This document shows, one piece after another, positions 17,785 to 30,436 of a DNA stretch of 33,150 nucleotides. The translations under genes and the position numbers were made by a program. Under the pieces are notes generated by a model. It did no database searches and was not told the DNA's origin. It saw only the letters and a program-made list of their open reading frames with translations. Origin of the DNA: Myxococcaceae bacterium (lineage in GTDB: Bacteria > Myxococcota > UBA727 > JABDBI01); contig JBAXMC010000003.1 of assembly GCA_037134495.1 (NCBI GenBank), positions 1 to 33,150 of the forward strand, written 5' to 3'. Each line of letters starts with the position of its first letter. Position 1 is the stretch's first letter.

Positions 17785-18816
17785 TTATGGCATAACCACC
17801 GTTTTTTGGGAAGACAGCATGTTGTCCACCAATGACCCCAGTGTCCATGACAAGGTTGTTTCTCCAATCGTCTTCGCTGAGATTAATTTTTGGTTCCGCT
17901 TAAACCCAATTTTTTCTAACACAACAGACATATAAGCCGTCTGAAAACAAACTCTTTTCAAATATTGTTCTGCAAAAGGAGACGGCAATTCTTGTTTCAA
18001 AGCCCCAAGATCCTTACTGCAAATTTTAGGGCCTTGCTGATCTAAAATCTCAGATGACACTTTCTCTAGTTTAAGCAAAGAAGCCAGCTGCTCAAAATTA
18101 TCAACCAAGTAAAACTTCCCTTGAAGTTTTGGCTTGTGAATCACTTTGAGTTGACGTGCCAAAGATTTTCTACAAAGGGCATATTTAAGGGGAATCTTCT
18201 TGCAGTCTTTAGAACCAAACTCTTTCCAAGCTCGCAGCTCTCCAAGGCCATCATAGGTTCGAGAGTAAATCTCTTTCGTAGAAGAGGGTTTAAACGTCAC
18301 TTGCAATGAAGCCCCGCCCATTTCTAACAAACCTACGCTAGGCTTCGAAGTATTTTTGAGAGAACCGAGCAGATAATTAATCGATATCCACTCATAAACC
18401 CCCTCTGCAACACCCGAAATCACTTCAGCTACCGGCGATCCAAATCCAGATTCCAAAAACACTTTTTGCACCTCTGCTATAATGCGCTCTTGGCTTATTT
18501 TAGAGAGTGCCCTAACACCTCCTGTTGCTTGCAACCTAAGAGAGACTTGTTCAACAGGAATATTTTTACCGATTTGCTCTTTGGCAAAATCGAGCAGTTT
18601 TTCAAGATAAAGCCTGATACCTGGTAAGTTATGCTCAAATGCAGACAAACCCGGTTCTATTTTTAAGTTGCTTTTGTATTTGACGATGCTGTTACCGATT
18701 TCATAAACAAACACACGAGTTCCACTGCTTCCTGCATCCATCATGACTGCATAGTCAACAGCTAAGATCGGAGAAGCAGTCAAAACAAGAAGCATTAGCA
18801 AAAGAGTCTGTCTCAT
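17785..18816 (-). CDS. Secreted GDA1/CD39-family NTPDase (apyrase)
   Basis: Signal peptide; apyrase conserved regions DAGSSGTR, ATGGVR, EGVYEWISINYLLG, EMGGASLQ, SWTLG. Confidence 0.9.
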   Translation of the reverse strand: MRQTLLLMLLVLTASPILAVDYAVMMDAGSSGTRVFVYEIGNSIVKYKSNLKIEPGLSAFEHNLPGIRLYLEKLLDFAKEQIGKNIPVEQVSLRLQATGGVRALSKISQERIIAEVQKVFLESGFGSPVAEVISGVAEGVYEWISINYLLGSLKNTSKPSVGLLEMGGASLQVTFKPSSTKEIYSRTYDGLGELRAWKEFGSKDCKKIPLKYALCRKSLARQLKVIHKPKLQGKFYLVDNFEQLASLLKLEKVSSEILDQQGPKICSKDLGALKQELPSPFAEQYLKRVCFQTAYMSVVLEKIGFKRNQKLISAKTIGETTLSWTLGSLVDNMLSSQKTVVMP

Positions 18817-18831
18817 GGTAAATCCTAGAAC

Positions 18832-19200
18832 ATGATTCCGCGTCTTTTAAAATGGACCTTGGCAAGTATAATCGTTACAGGTCTCATATTTATTTCATGG
18901 CCAAAGTTTGAAGCATTCCAGTGCAGGTCGATTCAAAGCGAAGCCAAAGCACAGCTTAGTCATTTATATGAAGCCGAGCAATTTTACTTTGCCCACCATC
19001 ACAGCTATACTTCTTTAGAGATGCTCATCCAAGAAGGCCTAATTAAATCAAATGAAAAAAATTATACTTATAAAACTTCTTACTACGATGATAAAACTTT
19101 TGAAATTGTAGCCACGTCTAAAACCCTCAACCAAGATGTCTGGAGTATTAACCAGGCAGATCGACTCCAATCCATTAAAAATGCTTGCACCTTCAAATAA
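18832..19200 (+). CDS. Type IV pilin-like protein lacking the prepilin cleavage motif
   Basis: TM segment followed by PKF..FQCRSIQSEAKAQL..LYEAEQFYF, and DVWSIN near the C-terminus. Confidence 0.7.
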   Translation: MIPRLLKWTLASIIVTGLIFISWPKFEAFQCRSIQSEAKAQLSHLYEAEQFYFAHHHSYTSLEMLIQEGLIKSNEKNYTYKTSYYDDKTFEIVATSKTLNQDVWSINQADRLQSIKNACTFK

Positions 19201-20137
19201 AGTTGTCCAACGCTGGAAAATACCTGATTTCTTAAGCGGCATCCGCGCTGATCACTACTTGGTTCACCATGTAGGCCGTATCTCACGAAACAAAGCTCAG
19301 CGCATTATCGAATCTGGCGACTTTCGGTTAGAACACCAAATGCTCAAAGCGAGTAAGCGCCTCAAAGCAGGCGACCCTGTTGAACTTTGGCGCACGCCTC
19401 CTGATTCTCCCAAAATCGAAAATCTCAAAGTTTCCGTTTTGTATGAAGATAAGCGTTTTTTAGTCATCAATAAACCTGGAAATTTAGCCATACATCCAAC
19501 AGCGCGTTATTTGTATCAAACCCTCACGCACTGGCTAAAAACCAATTATCCTGGCGAACCCATTCACCCTTGTCACAGGCTCGATCGAGAAACCAGTGGC
19601 GTCTTAATTTGCACACGTGATTCCGAAACCGAGTCACTTATTAAACGCGCTTTTATGGCCGGCAAGATCGACAAAACTTACTGGGCCCTGGTTGAAGGTC
19701 GTCTCCCTAAACCCATTTCATGCAGTAGGCCTTTAGCTTTACAAGGCTCACGCGGCTTGGTGGGGATCAAGATGATCGAAGACCCAGAGGGCCTTGCTTG
19801 TCAAACAGACTTCACTCCCTTGCACTATGACCCGGTCTCCAATTGGAGCTTGGTTGAATGTACTCCAAAAACTGGACGTCAGCATCAGATTCGGGCTCAT
19901 TTGGCCTTGGAAGGCTACCCTATTGTAGGAGACAAACTCTATGGCATGGGCGAAGAATTTTTCGATGCTTACACAAAATACGAAGCCAATTTAAGTTCGC
20001 TCCCACTCCACCGCCAGGCTTTACATGCTAAACGAGTTTGCTTAGAGCTTGAGGGTAAAAAATATGCTTTTGAGGCAGAGAACCCATTCTTTGATGCATT
20101 TCGATTAGGCACAGCTCCTCTTGACAAAACATTGTAA
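19181..20137 (+). CDS. RluA/RluD-family pseudouridine synthase
   Basis: S4-like N-terminus, INKPGNLAIHP, HRLDRETSG, TGRQHQIRAH, PIVGDKLYG, RQALHA; probable ATG at 19181. Confidence 0.93.
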   Translation: MLAPSNKVVQRWKIPDFLSGIRADHYLVHHVGRISRNKAQRIIESGDFRLEHQMLKASKRLKAGDPVELWRTPPDSPKIENLKVSVLYEDKRFLVINKPGNLAIHPTARYLYQTLTHWLKTNYPGEPIHPCHRLDRETSGVLICTRDSETESLIKRAFMAGKIDKTYWALVEGRLPKPISCSRPLALQGSRGLVGIKMIEDPEGLACQTDFTPLHYDPVSNWSLVECTPKTGRQHQIRAHLALEGYPIVGDKLYGMGEEFFDAYTKYEANLSSLPLHRQALHAKRVCLELEGKKYAFEAENPFFDAFRLGTAPLDKTL

Positions 20138-20148
20138 AGTATTATTAT
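20121..20148 (+). promoter_or_regulatory. Sigma70-like promoter of the AAA-vWA-RCC1 operon (probably leaderless)
   Basis: TTGACA-N16-TATTAT, then 6 nt to ATG 20155; no SD. Confidence 0.6.
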
Positions 20149-20154
20149 TTCGCA

Positions 20155-21546
20155 ATGTTTAAAACAATATTTTCAATACTATTGCTAACCACTCCGGTTC
20201 TTGCTCAGAACTTATTTAAGCACGAAAATCTTAAGTATCAAGGTCTTACAGAGCATGGCCTCTCTGAACTTAAGCAGATTCGAGACGCTTTGCGCCAACG
20301 TTTTGGACTGTTTGAACAAGAGTTCAAAGGCCTCTCCAATATACACCATGCAGCCACAGTGGCTCGTATGGCTAAAGCCAACATGTTCTTGTACGGCCCT
20401 CCAGGTGGTGCTAAGTCCATGCTTATTCAGTGGCTTTTTTCTGGAGAAGCAGAACCAGCTTTTCAGGTCCAATTACATCAAATGATGAGCGAACAAGCTT
20501 TTATTGGTGGCCAAAACTTTGAAGCTGCCAAAGAAGGACGTTTCGTATTAAACACTGAAAGCAGTTTGGCTAATTTCAGAGTCGCTCTTTTGGACGAAGT
20601 AGAAAAAGGAAACCCTGCGACACTCGCAGCTCTATTGAGTCTATTAAACGAACGTAAAGTCTTGGCAGGTAATCAGGTATTTGACGCCAAAACAGAGACT
20701 GTTTTCGCAACCAGTAACGCAAACTTGCCTGAATTTTTTTTGCAGTTCCTAGAATCCGGTCAGCGTTCAACAGCCCCTGCTTTATTAAACCGATTCCAAT
20801 TTAAGGGTTTTATGTACAACTGGTTGTCAGCGAATGACCAAGCTGATTTGGATGCCAGACGCGAGAAAAAAGCACTTTGCAAAATTTTTGAGACTTGCGC
20901 TAACGATGCTGTTTTCTTAACACCTCATCAACTAGATTGGGAAAAAATGCGTTCTTTTGCAAAAGTACTTTTTGTGAAGAGCTCATTTTTTAACACTGCT
21001 TACAATGAAATGGCTAATTTGCTACGCGACTCTACCAACAATGCTGTACGTGAATCAGAACTCAAACATCAGAAAGATCGATATAACGAACCTTTCGTTT
21101 ATTTCCCATCTTGCGATTGGACTGAGCGTTTACGTCAGCAAATCCCAGATGCAGTGCAATACTCAGCACTGGTTGATTTCCTTTTATCATCTTGGGCTGA
21201 TGACGCAAATCTTGAGAAAATGACGCGTAAACAACGTGAACTCGGACCCTACTCTTTGTGGCGTGCTTTCTTGATTACGACAACGCCTGGACCAGGAAAA
21301 GCTCAGTTAGAGTTAGACGGCGAAAAAATGAATATTAATTTTGGAACGCTTATTAATGCAGAGAAAGCTAGAGACGTGCGTGAGCAACGCATGATCCAAA
21401 ACTTGCTTGATGAACAAAATCGATTTAAAAGTGTTTATGTAAGTTTGACTGAAAAGTTCCAAGAATCGATCAAAAATGCAGCCAAATTTAGTTCTAACTC
21501 AGATGAATCCAATCAAGACTTTGAATTTTTAGTCATGAAGAAATAA
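20155..21546 (+). CDS. RavA/MoxR-type AAA+ ATPase with N-terminal signal peptide
   Basis: Walker A GPPGGAKS, Walker B LLDEVEKG, LLSLLNERK, ATSN, ALLNRF; N-terminus MFKTIFSILLLTTPVLA-Q. Confidence 0.85.
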   Translation: MFKTIFSILLLTTPVLAQNLFKHENLKYQGLTEHGLSELKQIRDALRQRFGLFEQEFKGLSNIHHAATVARMAKANMFLYGPPGGAKSMLIQWLFSGEAEPAFQVQLHQMMSEQAFIGGQNFEAAKEGRFVLNTESSLANFRVALLDEVEKGNPATLAALLSLLNERKVLAGNQVFDAKTETVFATSNANLPEFFLQFLESGQRSTAPALLNRFQFKGFMYNWLSANDQADLDARREKKALCKIFETCANDAVFLTPHQLDWEKMRSFAKVLFVKSSFFNTAYNEMANLLRDSTNNAVRESELKHQKDRYNEPFVYFPSCDWTERLRQQIPDAVQYSALVDFLLSSWADDANLEKMTRKQRELGPYSLWRAFLITTTPGPGKAQLELDGEKMNINFGTLINAEKARDVREQRMIQNLLDEQNRFKSVYVSLTEKFQESIKNAAKFSSNSDESNQDFEFLVMKK

Positions 21547-21548
21547 TT

Positions 21549-24500
21549 ATGAAGAATTTTATCTTAATCTGGGCACTGGCCTTGCCAGTGCTTTCAAGTA
21601 CACCTGCCCAGCTGATCTCTCAGTATGAAAACGACTTGTTTCCATACACGGATCCGTTTGTTCGCGTTCAAAATCTTGAACAAGGTCAGTTGATTTTTGA
21701 CAAGCTCAAGACATTTAAGCCGTTAGCGCTTGTGTCTGATGCCCTGGTTACGTTTCATTCACGGTCTGTAGAACCAGATGCAAACATGATCCAGTTTGTG
21801 ATGGAGCAAACCGAAAAAGTGATTACTTCAAGCGGTTATAGCAAGCTAGAAAAGCAATCTAACTTGCTAGCTTTGTATTACTTGCGCGATTACTTAAGTC
21901 GTTTTGAACAAAAAGAAGCTGTCGATCGTGATGGTGTTCAAGCAGGCGAAAACAAGAAAAAACAGGATCCAAAGCATCCTGAGATGCCAGAAGAATATAA
22001 ACCAACCACCAAAGACACAGAAAAAGATAAGGAACCAGGCAGCAAGGATGAACAAGTTGTTATCTTAGAAACCAATTTTGCAACCCCTTATTTGGGTCAA
22101 CGAACTTATGCAGAAGTCGTTCGGCATGCTGCTGCGCCTTTTAAAAGCATTGAATTGCCTACACAATTGCCTACGCCAGAGGCTTATAAAAACACCGGCA
22201 AAGAAATGTCAGTCTACATGCTTGGTGAAACAGAAATCACATTGTTTATCCCTCCAGGATATGAACCCAGACAACCTGAAGATTCTCGCGCTCGAATTAC
22301 ACGAAGCTCCAAGGGTGCCTATCACTTAAAAGTTTCAGAAGTTCTGCTCTTGGTAACAATTCCACTACAACCAACAAGCTCCCATAACCTCAGCCCTGTT
22401 TTGCATGAAATCTACACAAGACCTGTTGGTTTTCTAGACTCAGAATGGCCAGCGTTAATTCGCAGTGATTTATTTGACAAGAAATTCTCAAATTCTTTAA
22501 CCACCGCAGAAGCTGTAAGTAAGCACTTGGCAACAAAATATCTATACAGTGTTGGAGCAAGACCAGAAACAGACCCTGTCGACGCCCTCAACGCCGGTGC
22601 TTTTCAGTGCGATATGGCAGCTTATTTAATGGTCGGCATTTTACGCGATGTTTACAAAATCCCATCTCGTGTTGTTTCAGGCTATCGCGCTAAAAAACAT
22701 GGCAATGGTAAAAATCAAAGAAGTTACTTGGTCTTGCCAGGTGATGCTCATGCTTGGGTAGAAGTCTATGACAATGGCATCTGGCGCCCCATGGATCCAA
22801 CGCCTATTCTAAAAGACAAAGAGAAAGAGGACGAAGAGAAAGGCGAAAAAGATGAATATTCAGATCGGGAATTGGAAGATCAGCCTAAACCTGAATCGAA
22901 AAACCTCACCCCTAACCCCTCTCCACCAAGTGGAGAGGGTAATAAATCTGAAACCAGCGCTGGGAATTCCACTTTATCTATGGATTCTGAAGAACTAGCC
23001 AGCATGTTAACGCTCGGATCTTTGGAACTAAACCCTTCTGAAGACAGCGATCCACTTAGAGACAGAGCCATTCGCGTATTGCTGCGTTTAATTTTGGACC
23101 CAAATCTAGACGGCGTCAAAACTTACGAAAGGCTTTATCAATCAAGACAGCTATTTTTATCTATCTCGGAGCTCAAAAGCTTGGTTCAAGAATTGCTGGT
23201 AATTCATGAGAAGAAGCACCCTAATCTAAAAACTTGGTTGGAAGATATTTTGGTCTTTTTAGACCAGCGTGATTTGCCCACCACTTATCAAAATATTTAT
23301 CGCATCAAAAAATCTTTAGAGCTTTATGCAAAGCTCTTGGACAAAAACATGCGCTACCCAAGCGAGTTATTGGACCAGTTAGACGGTATTTTGCGAGACA
23401 TCTATGGACTTTCACACAGTGATTCAGCCGAAATAGCCATGGTCGCTGAATTCTATGATTCACTGCCTTCTTTGGTTCAAACACTGCTTGCTCAGCAATA
23501 TGGACTGATTCGAGTAGGCCCCAATGCGCCAACCAAAGAAGTTGCGAGGCTTTTAAAAGGTGGAACTCTCAATGATCTTAAGTTATTGGCCATTTTATCG
23601 CCTCTGACAGAGTTTATTTTGAATTCAACCCCTCGACCAGAATTCGAAGAAGTCAGAACTTGGACTCGGGATTCACGGCGATTAATGGGCAATGATTTGT
23701 TACCTCTGAATAGATTTTCAGATCTAACACGTTCGCTCATTACCAAACCAGGTCAAGATCTAGAAAAAAACTTAAGAGAAGGCAACATCTATACTCGCAC
23801 ACATCGTCAACGAATCGATGTACCAACTGGGTTTGGTAAAGATGATGCAGAACGTATTACGATTGTTTTGTATGACACTTCAGGCAGTATGTATGGAGAC
23901 CCTGAGCGTTTCCAGGCCGGCCTCATTTCTGCGTTTACAGCACGTGCTTTGAGTGATTTGGCACCCAGCGGAGCACATCGACATCGTATTGTCTTGGTGC
24001 CTTTTGATGATAAACCTGGCAACCCTGTTAAAGTTACGAATACCCAAGAAGCGCTGGATATTATCCATAATTACCGTTCTAAATTAGCCAATACTGCTGG
24101 CGGAACTGATATTCAAGCAGCTTTGATTCAAGCAATGGCCTTGATTGCTGATGCTGAACGTCGTTCAGGAGAGCCGCTAGCTGCTGCCAATATTATTCTG
24201 ATGACAGATGGCCAGTCACCACTTGATATTCCTAAGTTGGCAGAAGCCAGAAGCGCTATTGACAGAACAACACCTCTACAAATCATGTTTGTGGCCATTG
24301 GAACCAGCAATGATGAGTTGGTTAAATTCGTACAAGATTCTGAAAAAGCAGGCATCGAGACGGGTTTTTATCGAGAGTTTAATTCGGGTCTCATGAGCGA
24401 ATATATGAAAAAAGCGGATGCGCCTCCCGCACAAGGCTCTGCGGATAAGATTTACACAGAGAAAACATCTAGAGATTTGAGTCCGCAAACTCGAAACAGT

Positions 24501-24848
24501 TTAATTCAGGCGCTGCAATTAATGTCTGAGTTTTCATTGCAAGTACAACAGGCTTCTACTTATACAGCTTCGCAAGAACATTTGAGAGCATTAGAAACCA
24601 GCACTTGGAGCAAACCCGAATCTGTTGCACGTCCGTTACAAGTCTGGATCCAAAATCTGCGTCGTATGGCTTATGGACAGGTATTTAGGTCAGATTTGCC
24701 ACTGAGAGCTCAAGTCGCAGATGATATCTGGAAGCACTTTGACAAACTCACAGGTGTTTCAATGCAGCATTTGAGCCAAAACGAGTGGACCGAATTAAAA
24801 CATTATTATTGCCACGCGGCTGCCCTAGGAGCTTTAGGATGCCCATAA
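21549..24848 (+). CDS. Signal-peptide-bearing transglutaminase-like + vWA (ViaA-like) domain protein
   Basis: Triad FQC...HAWVEVY...MDPTP with IPSRVVSGY; MIDAS DTSGSM, GGTDI, LMTDG; N-terminus MKNFILIWALALPVLS. Confidence 0.85.
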   Translation: MKNFILIWALALPVLSSTPAQLISQYENDLFPYTDPFVRVQNLEQGQLIFDKLKTFKPLALVSDALVTFHSRSVEPDANMIQFVMEQTEKVITSSGYSKLEKQSNLLALYYLRDYLSRFEQKEAVDRDGVQAGENKKKQDPKHPEMPEEYKPTTKDTEKDKEPGSKDEQVVILETNFATPYLGQRTYAEVVRHAAAPFKSIELPTQLPTPEAYKNTGKEMSVYMLGETEITLFIPPGYEPRQPEDSRARITRSSKGAYHLKVSEVLLLVTIPLQPTSSHNLSPVLHEIYTRPVGFLDSEWPALIRSDLFDKKFSNSLTTAEAVSKHLATKYLYSVGARPETDPVDALNAGAFQCDMAAYLMVGILRDVYKIPSRVVSGYRAKKHGNGKNQRSYLVLPGDAHAWVEVYDNGIWRPMDPTPILKDKEKEDEEKGEKDEYSDRELEDQPKPESKNLTPNPSPPSGEGNKSETSAGNSTLSMDSEELASMLTLGSLELNPSEDSDPLRDRAIRVLLRLILDPNLDGVKTYERLYQSRQLFLSISELKSLVQELLVIHEKKHPNLKTWLEDILVFLDQRDLPTTYQNIYRIKKSLELYAKLLDKNMRYPSELLDQLDGILRDIYGLSHSDSAEIAMVAEFYDSLPSLVQTLLAQQYGLIRVGPNAPTKEVARLLKGGTLNDLKLLAILSPLTEFILNSTPRPEFEEVRTWTRDSRRLMGNDLLPLNRFSDLTRSLITKPGQDLEKNLREGNIYTRTHRQRIDVPTGFGKDDAERITIVLYDTSGSMYGDPERFQAGLISAFTARALSDLAPSGAHRHRIVLVPFDDKPGNPVKVTNTQEALDIIHNYRSKLANTAGGTDIQAALIQAMALIADAERRSGEPLAAANIILMTDGQSPLDIPKLAEARSAIDRTTPLQIMFVAIGTSNDELVKFVQDSEKAGIETGFYREFNSGLMSEYMKKADAPPAQGSADKIYTEKTSRDLSPQTRNSLIQALQLMSEFSLQVQQASTYTASQEHLRALETSTWSKPESVARPLQVWIQNLRRMAYGQVFRSDLPLRAQVADDIWKHFDKLTGVSMQHLSQNEWTELKHYYCHAAALGALGCP
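22903..22939 (+). repeat. Intragenic palindromic repeat, copy 3 (encodes [12 protein letters not shown])
   Basis: 22901-22945 matches 8361-8405 at 43/45 nt. Confidence 0.95.
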
Positions 24849-26032
24849 TATTTTTATTCTTACTCAGTCTATCTCTTCAAGCCGAGCTCTCGCCCATAGA
24901 CAATTATTTTGGATTGATCGGTGAGCAGCTGGAACAAAAAATCCTGAACGATGAGCATTTATTGCGCATGATCGCTGCCGCTGAACAGGGCAAGATTATT
25001 AACCCGATTACAGAACAAGAAGCTGCGATTAATCTACAGCGAGCAGTTGCTAAGCAAGTTTTGGATCAAATTATTGAGGATTGCTCTGAGCACACGCGAA
25101 TTATCCCCTGGGCAACGGAGCGCCTCAGCGAGCAAGCACGCGAAGATAAAGAAAAGAAGCAAAAACAAGAAGAGACAAAGAAACCTTGGAAGGTTCAAAA
25201 AAATCAAAAATTAAGCTTAGGTCAATATTACACTTGCGCAATCACAGCGGAAGGTATCGCCAAATGCTGGGGATTTGATTACAGAGCTCAAACCATTGTT
25301 CCTGCTGATTTAGGCATCGTTCAGAGTATCTCTTCTGGCGCACAGCATAATTGTGCAATCACAACCCAACACGAAGTCAAATGCTGGGGAGATAATATTG
25401 CTGAACAGACAAATATCCCTTCCGATTTAGGCTTTGTTCAGAGTATTTCTGCTGGTCTGGATCATACTTGTGTCATCACAACTGAAGGAGCAGCCAAATG
25501 TTGGGGAACCATTATGTATGGTATAACAAAGATTCCACTAGATTTAGGCATCGTTCAAAGTATTTCCACTGGTGGATACTATACTTGCGCACTGACAGTC
25601 GAAGGAACAGTCCGATGCTGGGGAGATAAGGAAATGGATCAAAGCAAAGTTCCTGAAGACTTAGGCACCGCTCAAAGCATTGCCACTGCGAGTAATCATG
25701 CTTGCGTACTCACAGTTGCAGGAAGAATTAAATGTTGGGGAGACAACAGATACGGTCAAACTGATGTTCCAGCCGATTTAGAAACTGTTCAGAGTATTGC
25801 TTTAGGTTGGGGCCATACTTGCGCGGTCAAAAACGATGGCACAGTCAAATGCTGGGGAGATAATAGTGACGGTCAAACCCATGTCCCTCCAAATCTAGGA
25901 ATCGTTCAAAGTATCGCTGCTGGGGCAGATCACACTTGCGCCATCACAGCCGATAGCACACTCAGATGCTGGGGGAATAACGAAGTGGGTCAACTCAACG
26001 TCCCTGAAGGTTTAAGGGTAGCGGTGGATTAA
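24839..26032 (+). CDS. Secreted RCC1/BLIP-II-like repeat protein A (7 x 39 aa)
   Basis: ATG 24839 with AGGAG, overlapping the vWA gene stop; signal peptide ending SLQA; seven HTCA...KCWG repeats; 397 aa. Confidence 0.9.
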   Translation: MPIIFLFLLSLSLQAELSPIDNYFGLIGEQLEQKILNDEHLLRMIAAAEQGKIINPITEQEAAINLQRAVAKQVLDQIIEDCSEHTRIIPWATERLSEQAREDKEKKQKQEETKKPWKVQKNQKLSLGQYYTCAITAEGIAKCWGFDYRAQTIVPADLGIVQSISSGAQHNCAITTQHEVKCWGDNIAEQTNIPSDLGFVQSISAGLDHTCVITTEGAAKCWGTIMYGITKIPLDLGIVQSISTGGYYTCALTVEGTVRCWGDKEMDQSKVPEDLGTAQSIATASNHACVLTVAGRIKCWGDNRYGQTDVPADLETVQSIALGWGHTCAVKNDGTVKCWGDNSDGQTHVPPNLGIVQSIAAGADHTCAITADSTLRCWGNNEVGQLNVPEGLRVAVD

Positions 26033-26063
26033 TATCTCAAATGTATTGAACCCGGACAAAGAG

Positions 26064-26092
26064 TTGACAAATTATGGACTATGATGTATTAA
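26064..26092 (+). promoter_or_regulatory. Sigma70-like promoter of the antitoxin-mazF pair
   Basis: TTGACA-N17-TATTAA upstream of ATG 26108. Confidence 0.5.
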
Positions 26093-26107
26093 TTAATAGA
26101 GCTGACT

Positions 26108-26350
26108 ATGAATACGAATGCAAGAACAGTGAATGCGACCTTCTCTCTCCCGGTGGAGGTTTACACTCTTTTACATGGCTTCGTTGAAAAACGAGGTTTG
26201 AGTCGATTTGTCAGCGAAGCGATCCAAAACGCATTGCAGTCGAAACAGAATAATTTGCGCCAGGCTTATCTTGAAAATAACCAAGATGAATTGATGCAGC
26301 GTGAGTTGAAAGATTGGGATAATATACAGACAGAGGGGTGGGATGAGTGA
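26108..26350 (+). CDS. Putative antitoxin (ribbon-helix-helix, MazE-like role)
   Basis: ATFSLP...SRFVSEAI...LRQAY, acidic C-terminus; overlaps the toxin start. Confidence 0.8.
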   Translation: MNTNARTVNATFSLPVEVYTLLHGFVEKRGLSRFVSEAIQNALQSKQNNLRQAYLENNQDELMQRELKDWDNIQTEGWDE

Positions 26351-26678
26351 TTTTCCGAAAAGAGGCGATATTTACTCGGTTAATTTAGATCCAACGGTTG
26401 GCTCAGAAATCCAGAAAACGAGACCCGCTTTGGTTATCTCAAATGACGCTGGAAATGAACTCACTAGTCGTATTATCATAGCACCCATTACATCGTCGGC
26501 AGCCAAAAACTATCCTTTTCAGGTTGTGATTGAACTCAATGGTAAAGCAAGAAAAATATTATTGGATCAAATCCGGACAATTGATAAACAGAGACTCAAA
26601 AATAGAATAACGACTGTTTCTCGTTCAACCATGACTTTGGTTGAAAAGGCCATTAAGATTTCATTGGCTTTATCGTAG
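26343..26678 (+). CDS. mazF: PemK/MazF-family mRNA interferase toxin
   Basis: KRGDIYSVNLDPTVGSEIQKTRPALVIS, APITS, DQIRTIDKQRL. Confidence 0.93.
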   Translation: MSDFPKRGDIYSVNLDPTVGSEIQKTRPALVISNDAGNELTSRIIIAPITSSAAKNYPFQVVIELNGKARKILLDQIRTIDKQRLKNRITTVSRSTMTLVEKAIKISLALS

Positions 26679-26686
26679 GCAACCAC

Positions 26687-26732
26687 TACGGTCAAACCGA
26701 TGTCCCTGATGGTTTAAGGGTAGCGGTAGATT
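26687..26732 (+). repeat. Orphan copy of the RCC1 gene 3' end (YGQTDVPDGLRVAVD)
   Basis: Matches the ends of both RCC1 genes (GQLNVPEGLRVAVD at 25988-26029; YGQTNVPEGLRVAVD ending at 30433). Confidence 0.92.
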
Positions 26733-26796
26733 GGCCATCACGGTGTTTTTCATGAGCTGGCTTGTCTTAATTTCTTTGTTGTCATAGATAGGATAC

Positions 26797-27192
26797 ATGG
26801 GAATAGATATTCGTTGGCAACAACGGTTACAGAATTTTGAAAAGGCTTATGCAGAGCTTCATGCTGCTTGTCAGAGAAAAAAATATTCAAAACTTGAAAG
26901 AGGCGGTCTCATACAAGCATTTGAGTTCACTTTTGAATTGGCTTGGAAAACACTTCAGGATTTACTGATTAGTCGAGGTTACGAAGTACGTGGTCCAAGA
27001 CCTGTTATAGAGCAAGCATTTCAAGATGGTCTTATTGTAAAGGGCGAAGATTGGGCCAAAATGCTGCTTAGCCGAAATCTAACAGCACACACTTACAATC
27101 AAGATACAGCTGAAAATATCGCTCAATCAATTAAAGCACACTATGAACCTTTGTTTGGCGATCTCATCAAAAAACTGCATCAAGAGAAATAA
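26797..27192 (+). CDS. HEPN protein (HI0074-family nucleotidyltransferase substrate-binding protein)
   Basis: RWQQRLQNF, GLIQAFEFTFELAWK, RNLTAHTY (R-x4-H). Confidence 0.92.
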   Translation: MGIDIRWQQRLQNFEKAYAELHAACQRKKYSKLERGGLIQAFEFTFELAWKTLQDLLISRGYEVRGPRPVIEQAFQDGLIVKGEDWAKMLLSRNLTAHTYNQDTAENIAQSIKAHYEPLFGDLIKKLHQEK

Positions 27193-27199
27193 TAAAACC

Positions 27200-27499
27200 A
27201 TGCACTCTGGATTATCTCAGGCCGTATTTGAAAAAATTTGCCAAGCTTTAAAAAAGAATCCCAAGCTTAAGAAAGTCTACTTATTTGGTTCAAGAGCTAT
27301 GGGAAGGCACAAACCAGGTTCAGATATCGATTTAGCAGTAGATGGTATTGAACTGTCTTTTGATGATATTTTATCCATGAGATTGGATTTGGACCGTTTA
27401 ATGCTTCCCTATAAATTTGACATTGTGAACTATGCAGAAGCCGATCCGGCACTATTAGAGCATATCAAAAGGGTTGGCGTGGAAATAATCCACCTTTGA
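27200..27499 (+). CDS. Minimal nucleotidyltransferase (MNT)
   Basis: LFGSRAMG...GSDIDLAV, LPYKFDI, HIKRVG; probable ATG at 27200. Confidence 0.92.
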   Translation: MHSGLSQAVFEKICQALKKNPKLKKVYLFGSRAMGRHKPGSDIDLAVDGIELSFDDILSMRLDLDRLMLPYKFDIVNYAEADPALLEHIKRVGVEIIHL

Positions 27500-27502
27500 C
27501 TT

Positions 27503-27555
27503 TGACTATGAATACGAATGCAAAAACAGTGAATGCGACCTTCTCTCTCCCGGTG
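27503..27555 (+). repeat. Truncated duplicate of the antitoxin 5' end
   Basis: 52/53 nt identical to 26103-26155, exactly 1400 bp downstream. Confidence 0.95.
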
Positions 27556-27565
27556 ACTGAAGAAA

Positions 27566-28807
27566 TTACCGCAAAGCTTCTTCGCGTTGTTGTTTTAAAA
27601 AAGGTCTATCAATCTGTTCAGCCAGCATTTCAATATCGCTTCGAGTGACACCACAGGCCATAAAATGCTCTTTCCAAAGATTCACAGCTTTAGCAACGAT
27701 AGAAATCTCAGTCGCAGCTTGATCTTTTGTAAGTCCAAACATGGAGCAGAGCGACATTGCATTGCTGAGCGTTGAATCAGCTTCCTCTAAGCCAACACGC
27801 ATTTGTTGATAACCCAGCGCTTGTCCCGAAGGAAGAACATCGTAAGCTGGAGATAACTCATATTGCTGCGATTCGTTCACTAAAAGCGCATGATTCTTTT
27901 CATGGTCATCCGTATTATCGATCAAAATATTGAACACCATGCGACGAAACAATTCTCGCATTTGCTGAATATTAATATCGTCGGCAGTGACACCACGTCT
28001 GCGCAATAACAGAGCCAGTTCCGGATACCCAAAGCGTTCTTCTGCAGCTTGAAGTGCGACTCGCGCAGAAAGAGCATGCACTCGTCTATTTGCAATACGA
28101 TCAAAGCGTTTGATTGCAACAGCATGACCATAAGTCGTACGAATTGGTATCGTTTGAGCAACACAGATGGCCGCCTGAGAAGCCAACGTCATGGAAGCAT
28201 GTTCAATAAGCGGTGTATCTATAGGTTCGCCGTCCGAAAATTTAATTACCCAAGGTTCACCCTCAATGTTTAGCAAAGCCTTAGGTCTGGCTCCTCCCAA
28301 ACTAACACCAGGAGAAATTAGACGTTTTTGCTCTTCTGGAATTGATTCGTTTGCTAATACTTTTCTCACCAGCTCTTGCATGGCAGCTACATCACCTAAA
28401 ACAGGCAACGGACTTGCATGGCAAGGCTCATATTTTTCATTGGATACCGAGACTCCAAGCGCACCAAATCGGTCATCTCCTGCAAAATACAGATATTCAA
28501 GAAGCGACAAGCGAAGTGGCTTATCCAAAACGCGGATAACTTGTTCTCCCCATCGATCTGGTCTGGCATCATCTACTGCACCTGGAGCTGTATCTTTCTC
28601 AACCGGAAAGAATTCATCTGGGCCGTTCAAGGGAAGATCTTCGCTGACGCCAAACCCATGCTCTCTCCATGATTTTGCATAACGCAATGAAACCCCACGC
28701 GGGTTGCGCATCAGGTTAAGCTCACCAATCAGTTTTGGATTTTCAGGCTGAGTGAGCATCCAAAGAAACAATTGATCCACTGGTTGGTAAGAACTATGTC
28801 GACTCAT
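27566..28807 (-). CDS. hipA: HipA-family kinase toxin
   Basis: PDRWG, SLGGARPKA, KRFDR, NTDDHEKNH, LSPAYD. Confidence 0.93.
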   Translation of the reverse strand: MSRHSSYQPVDQLFLWMLTQPENPKLIGELNLMRNPRGVSLRYAKSWREHGFGVSEDLPLNGPDEFFPVEKDTAPGAVDDARPDRWGEQVIRVLDKPLRLSLLEYLYFAGDDRFGALGVSVSNEKYEPCHASPLPVLGDVAAMQELVRKVLANESIPEEQKRLISPGVSLGGARPKALLNIEGEPWVIKFSDGEPIDTPLIEHASMTLASQAAICVAQTIPIRTTYGHAVAIKRFDRIANRRVHALSARVALQAAEERFGYPELALLLRRRGVTADDINIQQMRELFRRMVFNILIDNTDDHEKNHALLVNESQQYELSPAYDVLPSGQALGYQQMRVGLEEADSTLSNAMSLCSMFGLTKDQAATEISIVAKAVNLWKEHFMACGVTRSDIEMLAEQIDRPFLKQQREEALR

Positions 28808-29242: not shown

Positions 29243-30436
29243 ATGTTCAAAGTTATCTTACTCTTACTCAGCCTCTCTCTCCAAGCGCAGCTCGCGCCTA
29301 TAGACAACTATTTGGGTTTGATCGGTGAACAACTTGAGCAAAAAATCCTGAACGATGAGCATTTGCTGCGCATGATTGCTGGCGCCGAGCAGGGCAAAAT
29401 TATTAACCCGATTACCGAACAAGAAGGCAGGATTAACTTACAGCGAGAAGTTTCCAGACAAGTTTTGGAGCAAATTATTCCGGGCTGTTTAGATGCTTCG
29501 CAGATTATCCCTTGGGTAACGGAGCGCCTGAGCCAGCAAACACGCGAACGCAAAGAAAAGAAGCAGAAACAAGAAGAGACCAAGAAACCCTGGAAAATTA
29601 AAAAAAACTCTATACTCTCTGCCGGTTATGTAAACAGTTGCACCATTCATACCAATGGTTTGCTCGAATGCTGGGGAGATAATTATTATGGTCAAACCAA
29701 CGTCCCTATCGATTTAGGACCTGTTCTGAGTGTTGCTGCAGGAGGTTATCACACCTGCGCCATCAAAGCCGATGGCACAGTCAAATGCTGGGGCAATAAT
29801 GGAAACGGTCGAAGCGAGGTCATCACTGATTTAGGACCTGTTCAAAGCATAGCTGCAGGCCACTATCATACTTGCGCCATCAATATTGATGGATTGCTCA
29901 AATGTTGGGGAAACAATGATAAAGGTCAAACCGATGTCCCCGCTGATTTAGGACCTGTTCAAAACCTCGCTGCAGGCTACTCTCATACTTGCGCCATCAA
30001 TATTGATGGATTGCTCAAGTGTTGGGGAAACAAGGGACAGGATCAAAGCGATGTCCCCACTGATTTAGGACCTGTTCAGATTATCGCCACAGGACATTTT
30101 CACACCTGCGCCATCACAGCAGAAGGGACAGTCCGATGCTGGGGTGATGATAGAAACGGCCAAACAAATGTCCCAGACGATTTAAGAGCTGTTCAAAGCC
30201 TCGCTGCAGGCCATTCTCATACTTGCGCCATCAATATTGATGGATTGCTCAAGTGTTGGGGAAACAATGAAAGTGGTCAAACGAAAGTTCCCGCTGATTT
30301 AGGACTTGTTCTAAGCATCGCTGTAGGCGACTATCATACTTGCGCCATCAATATTGATGGATTGCTCAAGTGTTGGGGAAACAATGGATATGGTCAAACC
30401 AACGTCCCTGAAGGTTTAAGGGTGGCGGTGGATTAA
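29243..30436 (+). CDS. Secreted RCC1/BLIP-II-like repeat protein B (paralog of A)
   Basis: Same length (397 aa), near-identical N-terminal domain, seven 39-aa repeats with a 117-nt period. Confidence 0.92.
   Translation: MFKVILLLLSLSLQAQLAPIDNYLGLIGEQLEQKILNDEHLLRMIAGAEQGKIINPITEQEGRINLQREVSRQVLEQIIPGCLDASQIIPWVTERLSQQTRERKEKKQKQEETKKPWKIKKNSILSAGYVNSCTIHTNGLLECWGDNYYGQTNVPIDLGPVLSVAAGGYHTCAIKADGTVKCWGNNGNGRSEVITDLGPVQSIAAGHYHTCAINIDGLLKCWGNNDKGQTDVPADLGPVQNLAAGYSHTCAINIDGLLKCWGNKGQDQSDVPTDLGPVQIIATGHFHTCAITAEGTVRCWGDDRNGQTNVPDDLRAVQSLAAGHSHTCAINIDGLLKCWGNNESGQTKVPADLGLVLSIAVGDYHTCAINIDGLLKCWGNNGYGQTNVPEGLRVAVD

Follow-up and report, generated by a model that had tools for sequence, protein, structure and literature searches.

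In the 33,150-nt window analyzed here, a stretch of contig DNA from a Myxococcaceae bacterium, three adjacent genes raise the question of whether a MoxR-type AAA+ ATPase can be exported from the bacterial cytoplasm together with its partners. In the textbook view, the bacterial periplasm is without ATP and extracytoplasmic chaperones are ATP independent. The source is described as a small-genome, host-dependent bacterium, an uncultured relative of the myxobacteria and bdellovibrios. The preliminary description of this DNA had read the genes as an apparently exported operon for a RavA-like ATPase, a transglutaminase-vWA protein, and an RCC1 propeller. We give about an even chance to the reading that the operon encodes a Sec-exported MoxR-vWA ternary system, i.e., an ATP-driven remodeling or modification complex with exchangeable receptors. 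The features of the locus are collected in the table below.

Features of the locus in positions of the 33,150-nt window; aa numbers are those of the protein named
Feature	Position	Strand	Details
GDA1/CD39 NTPase gene	17785..18816		signal peptide-bearing product; two genes upstream of the operon
Promoter-like site	20121..20148	+	TTGACA-16 nt-TATTAT; 11/12 consensus matches, best in 19800-26400
Gene 1	20155..21546	+	RavA-like MoxR-clade AAA+ ATPase, 463 aa; starts MFKTIFSILLLTTPVLA
Gene 1, predicted Sec signal peptide	20155..20205		aa 1-17
Gene 2	21549..24848	+	transglutaminase-core + vWA/MIDAS adaptor/effector, 1099 aa; starts MKNFILIWALALPVLS
Gene 2, N-terminal part			predicted signal peptide aa 1-16; N-terminal helical domain 20-117; disordered linker; beta-sandwich 166-280
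Gene 2, middle part			transglutaminase-like core 283-440 (C354, H401, D416); acidic disordered linker 441-500; helical domain 500-690
Gene 2, C-terminal part			vWA with full MIDAS 699-957 (D776, S778, S780, T853, D887); C-terminal helical domain 979-1090
Gene 3	24839..26032	+	third component, RCC1 propeller, 397 aa; from the ATG at 24839, MPIIFLFLLSLSLQA
Gene 3, N-terminal part			predicted signal peptide aa 1-15; N-module of ~120 aa (AYLxxLLExxIIG...NPI)
Gene 3, C-terminal part	25220..26029		seven-blade RCC1_2 propeller, aa ~128-397
P0151	29243..30436	+	paralogous third component, 397 aa; predicted signal peptide + N-module + RCC1 layout

The three tightly packed genes were found again as open reading frames, with a gap of 2 nt between genes 1 and 2 (21546 to 21549) and an overlap of 10 nt between genes 2 and 3 (24839-24848). 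The ATG of gene 1 at 20155 is the earliest start past an in-frame stop. The gene 3 frame has alternative starts at 24785 and 24839, of which the ATG at 24839 is favored by alignment with orthologs and paralogs. As for the single promoter proposed ahead of the operon, no other site in the region fits the consensus as well, but the 8 promoter-like sites in 19800-26400 are not above the 10.7 +/- 2.9 in shuffled sequence, so the promoter is a consensus match only. Its -10 hexamer ends 6 nt ahead of the gene 1 ATG, and the mRNA may therefore be leaderless or nearly so.

Gene 1 was matched by the Pfam families bpMoxR (PF20030; 64.9 bits against a cutoff of 27) and AAA_5 (55.8 bits). PF20030 is not specific, because it also matched 12 of 14 control genomes, E. 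coli among them. The best match with a solved structure was RavA (E = 6e-14), with the alignment confined to the AAA+ core (aa 58-208). Foldseek searches with the AlphaFold model (pLDDT 94, pTM 0.92, low confidence only at residues 1-20) gave as top matches the MoxR protein CHU_0153 (2r44, E = 1.3e-11), RavA (4upb and 3nbx), and then MCMs, in agreement with the earlier label of a RavA-like ATPase. The RavA equivalog family proper (NCBIfam NF010054) was rejected, at 39.6 bits against a cutoff of 681 and over aa 69-193 only. The motifs comprise a GPPGGAKS P-loop (K87), Walker B D147-E148, sensor-1 N188, R213, and R370. K87, D147/E148, N188, and R213 are invariant in an alignment of the 5 closest orthologs, and across 65 diverse family members, down to 20% identity, G81, G84, K87, E148, N188, R213, and R370 never change. 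The earlier description of the Walker motifs as apparently intact needs one qualification: the P-loop has the G-A-K-S form known from RavA, with Ala at the site of the classical second Gly as in E. coli RavA (GPPGIAKS). The P-loop ends in GAKS in 34 of the 113 family representatives, in GAKT in 29, in AAKT in 14, in AAKS in 8, and in TAKS in none. Judged by its catalytic residues and modeled fold, gene 1 belongs to the MoxR clade of AAA+ ATPases.

The gene 2 protein carries Transglut_core (PF01841) at aa 315-417 with 47.4 bits (cutoff, 23) and VWA_2 at aa 771-889, and its Foldseek matches include vWA folds. Transglut_core is present in 13/13 homologs. The Cys-His-Asp triad and MIDAS, described earlier as intact, proved well conserved across 48 homologs: Q353, D355, H401, D416, and all five MIDAS residues are invariant, and C354 is kept in at least 90%. 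The nearest relative of the transglutaminase core (aa ~283-440) is the periplasmic domain of TgpA, both by sequence (E = 1.9e-5) and by fold (E = 5.9e-8), and the lowest-ranking homologs include distant TgpA-family proteins. Membership in the TgpA family itself was rejected, as DUF3488 (PF11992) was found in the remote TgpA matches only and in neither gene 2 nor its 13 homologs. No propeller family was detected in any of these 13 homologs, and the model after the vWA (aa 979-1090) is all helical.

RCC1_2 (PF13540) matched gene 3 at 206 bits in 6 to 7 stretches. Seven C-x10-CW units, one pair per blade, recur in the propeller with a 39-residue period. It is most similar to BLIP-II, a secreted protein (E = 4e-35), and to the ectodomain of ACR4 (E = 2.7e-17), while nuclear RCC1 follows at an E value of about 1e-4. 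The propeller is of the seven-blade RCC1_2/BLIP-II type, and with these as its closest relatives the analogy drawn earlier to the RCC1 effectors of Legionella is weak. We compared 17 third components, which contain RCC1_2 (9), FGE-sulfatase (6), an ACSF4-like propeller (2), or LRRs (2), and in all 17 a conserved N-module precedes the variable C-terminal domain. The same genome encodes four further third-component paralogs. P0151, located 3.2 kb downstream of the operon past a toxin-antitoxin gene block, is 73% identical to gene 3 in the N-module and 55% in the RCC1 part. The common N-module, swapped C termini, and additional paralogs fit the proposal of exchangeable receptors.

The operon was found in 16 loci, with MoxR identities of 39 to 68%. 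Full-length orthologs (58 to 68% identical) occur in 4/20 same-family genomes, and 11 further loci (39 to 56%) come from other MAGs. It is present in 5/21 family genomes; it was not found in the two same-genus genomes, and full-length matches were absent from all 380 remaining genomes sampled from the phylum. Wherever the DNA continues, the order is MoxR, transglutaminase-vWA (13 loci), and one to three third components. The linkage to a third gene is kept in relatives, with a third component following in 11/11 loci that have downstream DNA. Clustering of the wider ATPase family at 50% identity (E < 1e-30) gave 122 clusters, among them tandem-AAA forms and fusions to WD40 or FGE-sulfatase domains.

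Signal peptides were scored with our own crude and lenient heuristic for the Sec (type I) pattern of a basic n-region, an h-region of 7 to 15 residues, and small side chains at positions -3 and -1. Of the 1,199 genome ORFs of at least 200 aa, 330 qualify from their first start and 500 from any start within 60 codons (28 to 42%), and one Bat-operon MoxR passed as a false positive. By this lenient measure, all three proteins have the Sec-type N termini ascribed to them. Across the 16 loci, 42/46 operon proteins were signal peptide-like at any start (MoxR, 14/16; vWA, 12/13; third component, 16/17) versus a background of 500/1199, and 33/46 passed at the first start versus 330/1199. In the wider ATPase family, 93/113 N-complete representatives were signal peptide-like. 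The failures (4/46 and 20/113) count against export, and a few of them (P0004, P0016, P0034, and P0036) appear genuinely to be without a hydrophobic N terminus. In an alignment of five MoxR orthologs, the first ~17 residues drift but remain hydrophobic, and conservation begins just past the predicted cleavage site. Conservation of hydrophobic N termini in homologs had been set beforehand as a refutation test, which the finding of export signals survived. The model of gene 1 exceeds a confidence of 90 from about residue 21 only, which we counted in favor of export. The uncharged N-terminal runs span 10 to 20 residues, which is short for a membrane anchor. All six MoxR ATPases of the neighboring clade in same-order genomes (GPPGTGKS or GPPGTAKS) were not signal peptide-like. 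The seven C-x10-CW pairs of the propeller would also fit an oxidizing compartment; in ACR4, each blade has a disulfide, which the authors of that report explain by adaptation to conditions outside the cell. The nearest relatives of the two other folds point the same way, with secreted BLIP-II and extracellular ACR4 for the propeller and the periplasmic domain of TgpA for the transglutaminase core. At the level of sequence comparison, the export signals are not start-codon artifacts, since they recur across 16 loci.

An exported complex need not be directed at other cells, and the TgpA-like core leads to the first competing explanation, which we regard as unlikely: that the complex matures or repairs the cell's own wall or outer membrane assembly and that the propellers bind self. 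The similarity to the TgpA periplasmic domain in sequence and fold and the remote TgpA-family proteins in the homolog list agree with such housekeeping. MoxR-DUF58-TgpA operons, with their transglutaminase domain facing the periplasm, would be the model, and MoxR-vWA pairs are, according to the main text of Kaur et al. (PMC7159879), generally maturation chaperones. However, the DUF3488 membrane domain is absent, the range of the operon is patchy down to the two same-genus genomes, the third components are multicopy and domain swapped, and a toxin-antitoxin block adjoins the locus.

Whether the ATPase can work as a motor after export depends on nucleotide. Sec substrates cross as unfolded chains; therefore, the ATPase cannot bring ATP along and needs an outside supply. 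The genome encodes a full TLC ATP/ADP translocase (640.8 bits, with 0/14 control genomes matched) and a GspD-type secretin, the latter with a PDZ protein gene ahead of it. Known energy parasites have their ATP/ADP translocase in the inner membrane, where it takes up periplasmic ATP; a translocase-bearing bacterium should therefore have a periplasm that is not ATP free. Because the translocase, the secretin, and the exported-type CD39 NTPase are all encoded, host ATP plausibly reaches the periplasm here. Of 20 family genomes, 16 have a TLC match of 500 bits or more; since TLC is thus family-wide and the operon is not, the two are not specifically linked. Among five distant operon-bearing genomes, TLC was strong in one, scored ~80 to 87 bits in one, and was none or marginal (19 bits) in three, so the ATP argument does not generalize. 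These three genomes and the textbook ATP-free periplasm are in line with an exported but ATP-independent device, in which the AAA+ ring would be the scaffold or one-shot latch of a surface or secreted vWA/MIDAS-propeller adhesin with no nucleotide turnover outside. Surface MIDAS adhesins are indeed present in predatory bacteria, e.g., Bd0875 (PMC11003981). We nevertheless consider this device quite improbable, because a Walker A Lys, Walker B Glu, sensor-1 Asn, and two Arg would hardly stay invariant in 65 members unless nucleotide is bound and hydrolyzed.

Very improbable in our judgment is a cytoplasmic or inner-face anti-invader conflict system of the Kaur et al. type, with the N termini as miscalled starts or inward tethers: bpMoxR is the best family match of gene 1 and the grammar agrees (constant core, variable third component, tandem paralogs, patchy range, and toxin-antitoxin neighbors), but gene 1 begins at the first start past an in-frame stop, basic n-regions and small -3/-1 residues recur in 16 loci and would place the C-terminal bulk outside by the positive-inside rule, the h-regions are below anchor length, neighboring-clade MoxRs with the published GxxxTAKS P-loop are without such N termini, the periodic Cys pairs fit an oxidizing compartment, and none of the three proteins matched a PADLOC-DB 2.0 family at E values up to 0.01.

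In the Sec-exported ternary complex that we favor, gene 1 would be a RavA-like AAA+ motor, gene 2 a vWA/MIDAS cofactor fused to a TgpA-like cysteine enzyme of transglutaminase fold, and gene 3 one of several interchangeable receptors, in which a docking module at the N terminus precedes a variable domain for ligand binding (in this case an RCC1 propeller of the disulfide type). Sec would translocate all three proteins, the short signal peptides would be removed, and the complex would act in the periplasm or, via the type II secretion system of this genome, past the outer membrane. The receptor subunit would bind its target (a host, prey, or envelope protein or glycan), and a peptide from either the receptor or this target may sit in the MIDAS site. 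The MoxR ring would hydrolyze ATP to remodel or release the complex, upon which the cysteine enzyme would cleave, cross-link, or deamidate the target; the source of ATP here would be the host cell. What the sequences show directly is the gene content and its linkage, the conservation of catalytic residues and of signal peptide-like N termini, the modular build of the third components, and the genes for the translocase and secretin. We infer actual export, cleavage, and assembly, as well as the ATP supply, chemistry, and target of the complex. That the complex acts within a host or prey compartment, and that its chemistry is of the protease or deamidase kind, were both proposed in the preliminary description and are conceivable.

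A broader proposal, to which we give somewhat less than an even chance, is that the whole RavA-like AAA+ clade is Sec exported and hydrolyzes host- or prey-derived ATP beyond the cytoplasm. Cotargeting would apply to all three partners, with a shared mature-N-terminal "C-[ED]-x-[LA]-[LF]" tag in most lineages, and parasites or predators would use them to remodel or modify proteins in the periplasm or at the host/prey interface. If true, this would contradict the textbook rule of ATP-independent extracytoplasmic chaperones in bacteria and be an exception to the assumption that no ATP-driven machine works past the inner membrane unless coupled to a cytoplasmic ATPase. The motors would then belong to organisms living on or inside other cells, some of which, this one included, would take up ATP from their hosts. 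It would extend the published MoxR-vWA ternary grammar to an extracytoplasmic setting with swappable RCC1, FGE-sulfatase, LRR, and other propeller receptors. The operon would then be a candidate host- or prey-recognition device in small-genome uncultured relatives of the myxobacteria and bdellovibrios.

The arrangement had not been recognized as described, but MoxR-vWA-third-component systems are in print, including a beta-propeller subtype of the ternary conflict systems (Kaur, Burroughs, Iyer, Aravind 2020, eLife, PMC7159879), and Pfam holds the bpMoxR model. The general ternary kind is therefore known, whereas the defining features of the beta-propeller subtype differ from what we found. 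As in that subtype, going by its main text, one operon combines a MoxR AAA+ ATPase, a large vWA protein, and a third gene whose product joins a variable region to a beta-propeller and carries a hydrophobic segment; the range is patchy, the third components vary, and the P-loop is a nonclassical AKS type. The published vWA protein has about four C-terminal propeller blades and no conventional effector, whereas the one here ends in helices and has a transglutaminase core N-terminal to the vWA. The same text gives a GxxxTAKS P-loop, called frequent but not universal; here it is GPPGGAKS, with GPPGTAKS in signal peptide-less same-order MoxRs. The published third component combines TPRs and a beta-propeller with a variable N-region and a segment that spans the membrane, while here no TPR family was found in the third component, the N-region is conserved, and the C-terminal domain varies. 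Signal peptides are predicted on all three proteins here; "signal peptide" and "secreted" are absent from the main text of Kaur et al., and our literature search found no description of export.

E. coli RavA-ViaA (PDB 3nbx, 6q7l, and 4upb) shares the GPPG-x-AKS P-loop and a vWA partner and is the closest solved relative, although the similarity of gene 1 to RavA stops past the AAA+ core. RavA is an active ATPase, and RavA-ViaA is cytoplasmic; to our knowledge, the pair has no transglutaminase and no third component. P. aeruginosa TgpA (PDB 6g49) has a periplasm-facing Cys-His-Asp domain of transglutaminase fold that is genetically tied to a MoxR ATPase. TgpA spans the membrane several times, carries DUF3488, and has no vWA; the MoxR tied to it is cytoplasmic, whereas the enzyme here is predicted to be a soluble exported fusion with a vWA. 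BLIP-II, a secreted beta-lactamase inhibitor of Streptomyces, and the ACR4/CRINKLY4 ectodomain are, like gene 3, seven-blade RCC1-like propellers with a period of ~39 residues, and both bind proteins extracellularly; neither has the N-module or ATPase link of gene 3. ACR4 has one disulfide per blade, and the propeller here has one Cys pair per blade, a match in count. AAA+ proteins outside the cytosol include HSP101 of the Plasmodium PTEX and the ER-lumenal torsins. The Acidianus two-tailed virus (ATV) adds the MoxR/vWA pair p618/p892, as cited in the main text of PMC7159879. These systems are eukaryotic or viral, with no bacterial Sec-exported AAA+ family among them, and the operon would resemble them in placing an AAA+ motor beyond the cytosol of the producing cell, with the ATV pair likewise joining MoxR specifically to a vWA protein.

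The three ORFs of the operon, predicted to encode a RavA-like MoxR AAA+ ATPase (gene 1), a transglutaminase-vWA protein (gene 2), and an RCC1-propeller third component (gene 3), are co-directional. Gene 1 and gene 2 are separated by 2 nt, and gene 2 and gene 3 overlap by 10 nt, given a gene 3 start at the ATG at 24839 (MPIIFLF...), which we preferred because an alignment of orthologs and paralogs supports it. The gene 1 ATG is the first start past an in-frame stop. Since sigma-70-like matches were no more numerous in this region than in shuffles, we regard the best of them, TTGACA-16-TATTAT, as a consensus match only. Its −10-like hexamer ends 6 nt ahead of the gene 1 ATG, with no Shine-Dalgarno-like sequence visible between the two, and the gene 1 transcript may be leaderless. 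Directly upstream of the neighboring pseudouridine synthase gene lies a gene whose small product resembles a type IV pilin and has a hydrophobic segment at its N-terminus (Pilin_GH, 27.4 bits, slightly below the cut-off). On the other side, a toxin-antitoxin-type gene block separates the operon from a second RCC1 paralog.

Features of the operon, its surroundings, and the modeled gene 2 product (nucleotide positions refer to the window unless a contig is named)
Feature	Position	Strand	Remark
GDA1/CD39 nucleoside phosphatase	17785-18816	-	152 bits; signal-peptide-like N-terminus MRQTLLLMLLVLTASPILA
Type IV pilin-like protein	18832-19200	+	
Pseudouridine synthase gene	ends 20137		upstream of operon
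Sigma-70-like match	20121-20148		
TATTAT to gene 1 ATG	20142-20157		
Gene 1	20155-21546	+	463 aa
Gene 2	21549-24848	+	1099 aa
Gene 3	24785/24839-26032	+	
Toxin-antitoxin-type block	26108-28807		
Small ORF and PemK/MazF toxin	26108-26678		in block
Nucleotidyltransferase substrate-binding protein and Pol-beta-type nucleotidyltransferase	26797-27499		in block
HipA-like kinase	27566-28807	-	in block
Further third component	29243-30436		
TLC ATP/ADP translocase (locus L034)	G000:C7:15214-16668		640.8 bits; full length
Gene 2, N-terminal helix			takes in predicted signal peptide
Gene 2, helical domain	aa 20-117		
Gene 2, disordered linker			Lys/Glu/Pro-rich; between helical domain and beta-sandwich
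Gene 2, beta-sandwich	aa 166-280		
Gene 2, transglutaminase core	aa 283-440		Pfam Transglut_core, aa 315-417
Gene 2, disordered linker	aa 441-500		acidic
Gene 2, helical domain	aa 500-690		
Gene 2, vWA domain	aa 699-957		Pfam VWA_2, aa 771-889
Gene 2, C-terminal helical domain	aa 979-1090		

The preliminary description had made signal peptides on all three proteins its central claim and their conservation in homologs its own test. Signal-peptide-like N-termini did prove to be conserved. Using our own heuristic (basic n-region, uncharged hydrophobic core, and small residues at −3 and −1, accepted at any start within 60 codons unless the first start is stated), 42 of 46 operon proteins from 16 loci passed (MoxR, 14/16; vWA, 12/13; third components, 16/17), and the four failures still start with hydrophobic stretches. 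The heuristic is lenient, as 500 of the 1199 ORFs of 200 aa or longer in the window's genome pass at any start in 60 codons and one Bat-operon MoxR was a false positive; at the first start, 33/46 operon proteins passed compared to 330/1199 of these genome ORFs. More telling than these counts, in our view, is the N-terminal conservation pattern of gene 1. In an alignment of five orthologs, residues 1 to 17 vary freely yet remain hydrophobic, and near-identity starts at LFKHE, right past the predicted cleavage site. The uncharged runs in the N-termini of the operon proteins span 10 to 20 residues, which is short for anchors.

We then considered the wider ATPase family. A profile was searched against 1.84 billion representatives and returned 3042 relatives, 122 of them below 1e-30. 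Among the best 150 of the 3042, 113 have both a complete N-terminus and a P-loop, and the heuristic accepted 93 of the 113. The nearest other MoxRs from same-order genomes, with P-loops GPPGTGKS or GPPGTAKS, failed in 6/6 cases. We conclude that predicted export signals are a conserved trait of the gene 1 clade, and that the proteins are probably translocated. Also in the clade are two-AAA-module proteins of about 1000 aa (e.g., P0072 and P0079), a 1394-aa fusion to an FGE-sulfatase domain (P0098), and WD40 propeller fusions (P0134 and P0139, in forms of 780 to 980 aa). In the majority of distant relatives (loci L022-L030, proteins P0001-P0211), a motif C-[ED]-x-[LA]-[LF] common to all three components stands a few residues past the predicted cleavage site. 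The post-signal Cys occurs in 84/117 N-complete MoxR representatives, 65 of the 84 having L, F, or I at +4, and in 33/51 vWA proteins, 28 of which have L at +4. A lipoprotein signal was rejected, since the Cys is preceded by S, K, P, E, or D residues, which form no lipobox; the motif might act as a tag for co-targeting or provide a disulfide between subunits. It is absent from the window's own operon, whose clade has lost it.

By its sequence, gene 1 is a predicted RavA-like MoxR ATPase with active-site residues intact. Pfam assigned bpMoxR (64.9 bits) and AAA_5; bpMoxR also matched in 12/14 control genomes and is therefore not specific. With a profile of five orthologs, the best solved-sequence match was RavA (E 6e-14), the similarity being confined to the AAA+ core (aa 58-208). 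Both proteins have an unusual P-loop variant, GPPGGAKS in gene 1 and GPPGIAKS in RavA. Gene 1 is not a RavA ortholog, scoring 39.6 bits where the cut-off is 681. The AlphaFold model (65 sequences; pLDDT 94, pTM 0.92) is poorly defined at residues 1 to 20 only, and its top fold matches were Cytophaga MoxR (2r44), RavA (4upb and 3nbx), and MCM proteins. Across the 65 relatives, with identity down to 20%, G81, G84, K87, E148, N188, R213, and R370 are invariant.

The gene 2 product is a predicted multidomain adaptor and enzyme. Its structure model, built from 48 homologs (pLDDT 84.8), contains no propeller. In the homologs, Q353, D355, H401, and D416 are invariant, C354 is conserved in at least 90%, and the MIDAS residues D776, S778, S780, T853, and D887 are invariant. 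Among solved proteins, the enzyme part comes closest to the TgpA periplasmic domain of Pseudomonas aeruginosa (sequence E 1.9e-5; fold E 5.9e-8), and the other fold matches of gene 2 were vWA domains.

The third component is modular. Each of the 17 sequences aligned, from 11 loci, has a hydrophobic N-terminus, a conserved module some 120 residues long (AYLxxLLExxIIG ... NPI ... basic/acidic helix), and a C-terminal domain that differs. Pfam identifies RCC1_2 in nine sequences, FGE-sulfatase in six, and an ACSF4-like propeller and LRRs in two each. At several loci, the third components form tandems of two or three, and the window's genome has four besides gene 3, one in the window and the rest on contigs C87, C228, and C71. 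No Pfam or NCBIfam family covers the N-module, and a protein-atlas search gave low scores (best, 0.76; TM up to 0.33) that assign no fold or family. A complex prediction of the N-module (aa 16-135) with gene 2 aa 17-120 and aa 500-1099, the MoxR chain left out, scored 0.00 (mark, 0.32) and is evidence neither way. The gene 3 propeller (RCC1_2, 206 bits) is built of seven C-x10-CW units that repeat strictly every 39 residues. Its nearest matches are BLIP-II, a secreted protein (E 4e-35), and the ectodomain of ACR4 (E 2.7e-17), and it is distant from nuclear RCC1 (E about 1e-4). The ACR4 structure paper describes a disulfide stabilizing each blade, possibly an adaptation to the extracellular environment; the C-x10-CW pairs of gene 3 may lie at positions equivalent to the ACR4 cysteines.

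Orthologs of gene 1 (58 to 68% identity) were found in 4/20 same-family genomes. Eleven further loci (39 to 56% identity) all come from MAG records labeled Bdellovibrionales, Bacteriovoracales, Oligoflexales, Pseudobdellovibrionaceae, Deltaproteobacteria, and the like, and gene order is retained at all ortholog loci wherever the DNA continues. We judged the taxonomic range of the wider family from the labels of 14 loci and a scan of the window's phylum, in which 52 of 401 sampled genomes matched. Full-length matches (>600 bits) came from five genomes only, all of the window's family; the remainder, the unpublished genome G200 among them, matched in the AAA core only, at about 110 bits. The operon is absent from the two same-genus genomes, and the next relatives beyond the family are MAGs labeled bdellovibrio-like. 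This patchiness, read from occurrence rather than from a tree, suggests horizontal spread among bacteria living on or in other cells.

Rickettsia- and Chlamydia-type ATP/ADP translocases are the mark of energy parasites, in which the inner membrane imports periplasmic ATP. In the window's genome (2.0 Mb, 96% complete) there is a full-length TLC translocase, a family matched in 0/14 control genomes, which by analogy appears to mark the organism as an energy parasite; its periplasm would therefore hold host ATP. Of the 20 family genomes (0.3 to 3.4 Mb), 16 have TLC matches of 500 bits or more, and the family as a whole gives the impression of host-dependent energy parasites within an order whose genomes measure 5 to 8 Mb. 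A eukaryote-type ecto-NTPase of the GDA1/CD39 type with a signal-peptide-like N-terminus, encoded on the opposite strand two genes ahead of the operon, again points to extracytoplasmic nucleotides, and the genome's GspD-type secretin, which follows a PDZ protein, is a sign of a type II secretion route. We rejected TLC as a specific partner of the operon: it is family-wide, whereas the operon is in 5/21 genomes, and 3/5 distant operon-bearing genomes have no convincing TLC (strong in one, about 80 to 87 bits in one, and none or one marginal match in three). This argues against host-ATP supply via TLC as a general rule for operon bearers.

Beyond the observed parts list, we infer the mechanism. 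The three proteins would first be exported through Sec. The variable domain of the third component would bind a target and its N-module would dock, an acidic peptide being held by the gene 2 vWA MIDAS; the MoxR ring would then spend ATP to remodel or release the assembly, so licensing the cysteine enzyme. Among rival readings, we hold a self-directed role in the envelope to be unlikely. Somewhat less probable still is an ATP-independent scaffold or adhesin. That this is a cytoplasmic conflict system with misread N-termini is improbable.

PADLOC gave no match for the three operon proteins. Bd0875 of Bdellovibrio was rejected as the same system, being a lipoprotein vWA MIDAS adhesin; the main text of its paper mentions neither MoxR nor transglutaminase, and its sole "operon" refers to another gene. 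In the open-access literature covered, we came across no account of MoxR ATPases bearing signal peptides and no occurrence of periplasmic, extracytoplasmic, secreted, exported, or extracellular AAA+; the supplements of Kaur et al. 2020 may list such loci. The words "signal peptide" and "secreted" are absent from the main text of Kaur et al. (PMC7159879), where "transglutaminase" appears once, for VMAP proteins; the available text of the 2021 follow-up (PMC8195603) is likewise without signal peptides on MoxR ATPases. The main text of Kaur et al. describes four MoxR-vWA ternary systems, and the beta-propeller subtype among them has the same three-part grammar as our operon but differs in its particulars. 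Its vWA protein ends C-terminally in about four propeller blades and it lacks a conventional effector, while the vWA protein here has no propeller and carries a transglutaminase core. Its P-loop is often GxxxTAKS, as opposed to GPPGGAKS. Its third protein is variable in the N-region and also carries a membrane-spanning segment, TPRs, and a propeller; in ours, there are no TPRs, the N-module is conserved, and it is the C-terminus that varies. Set against these particulars, all three proteins of the window's operon carry predicted signal peptides.
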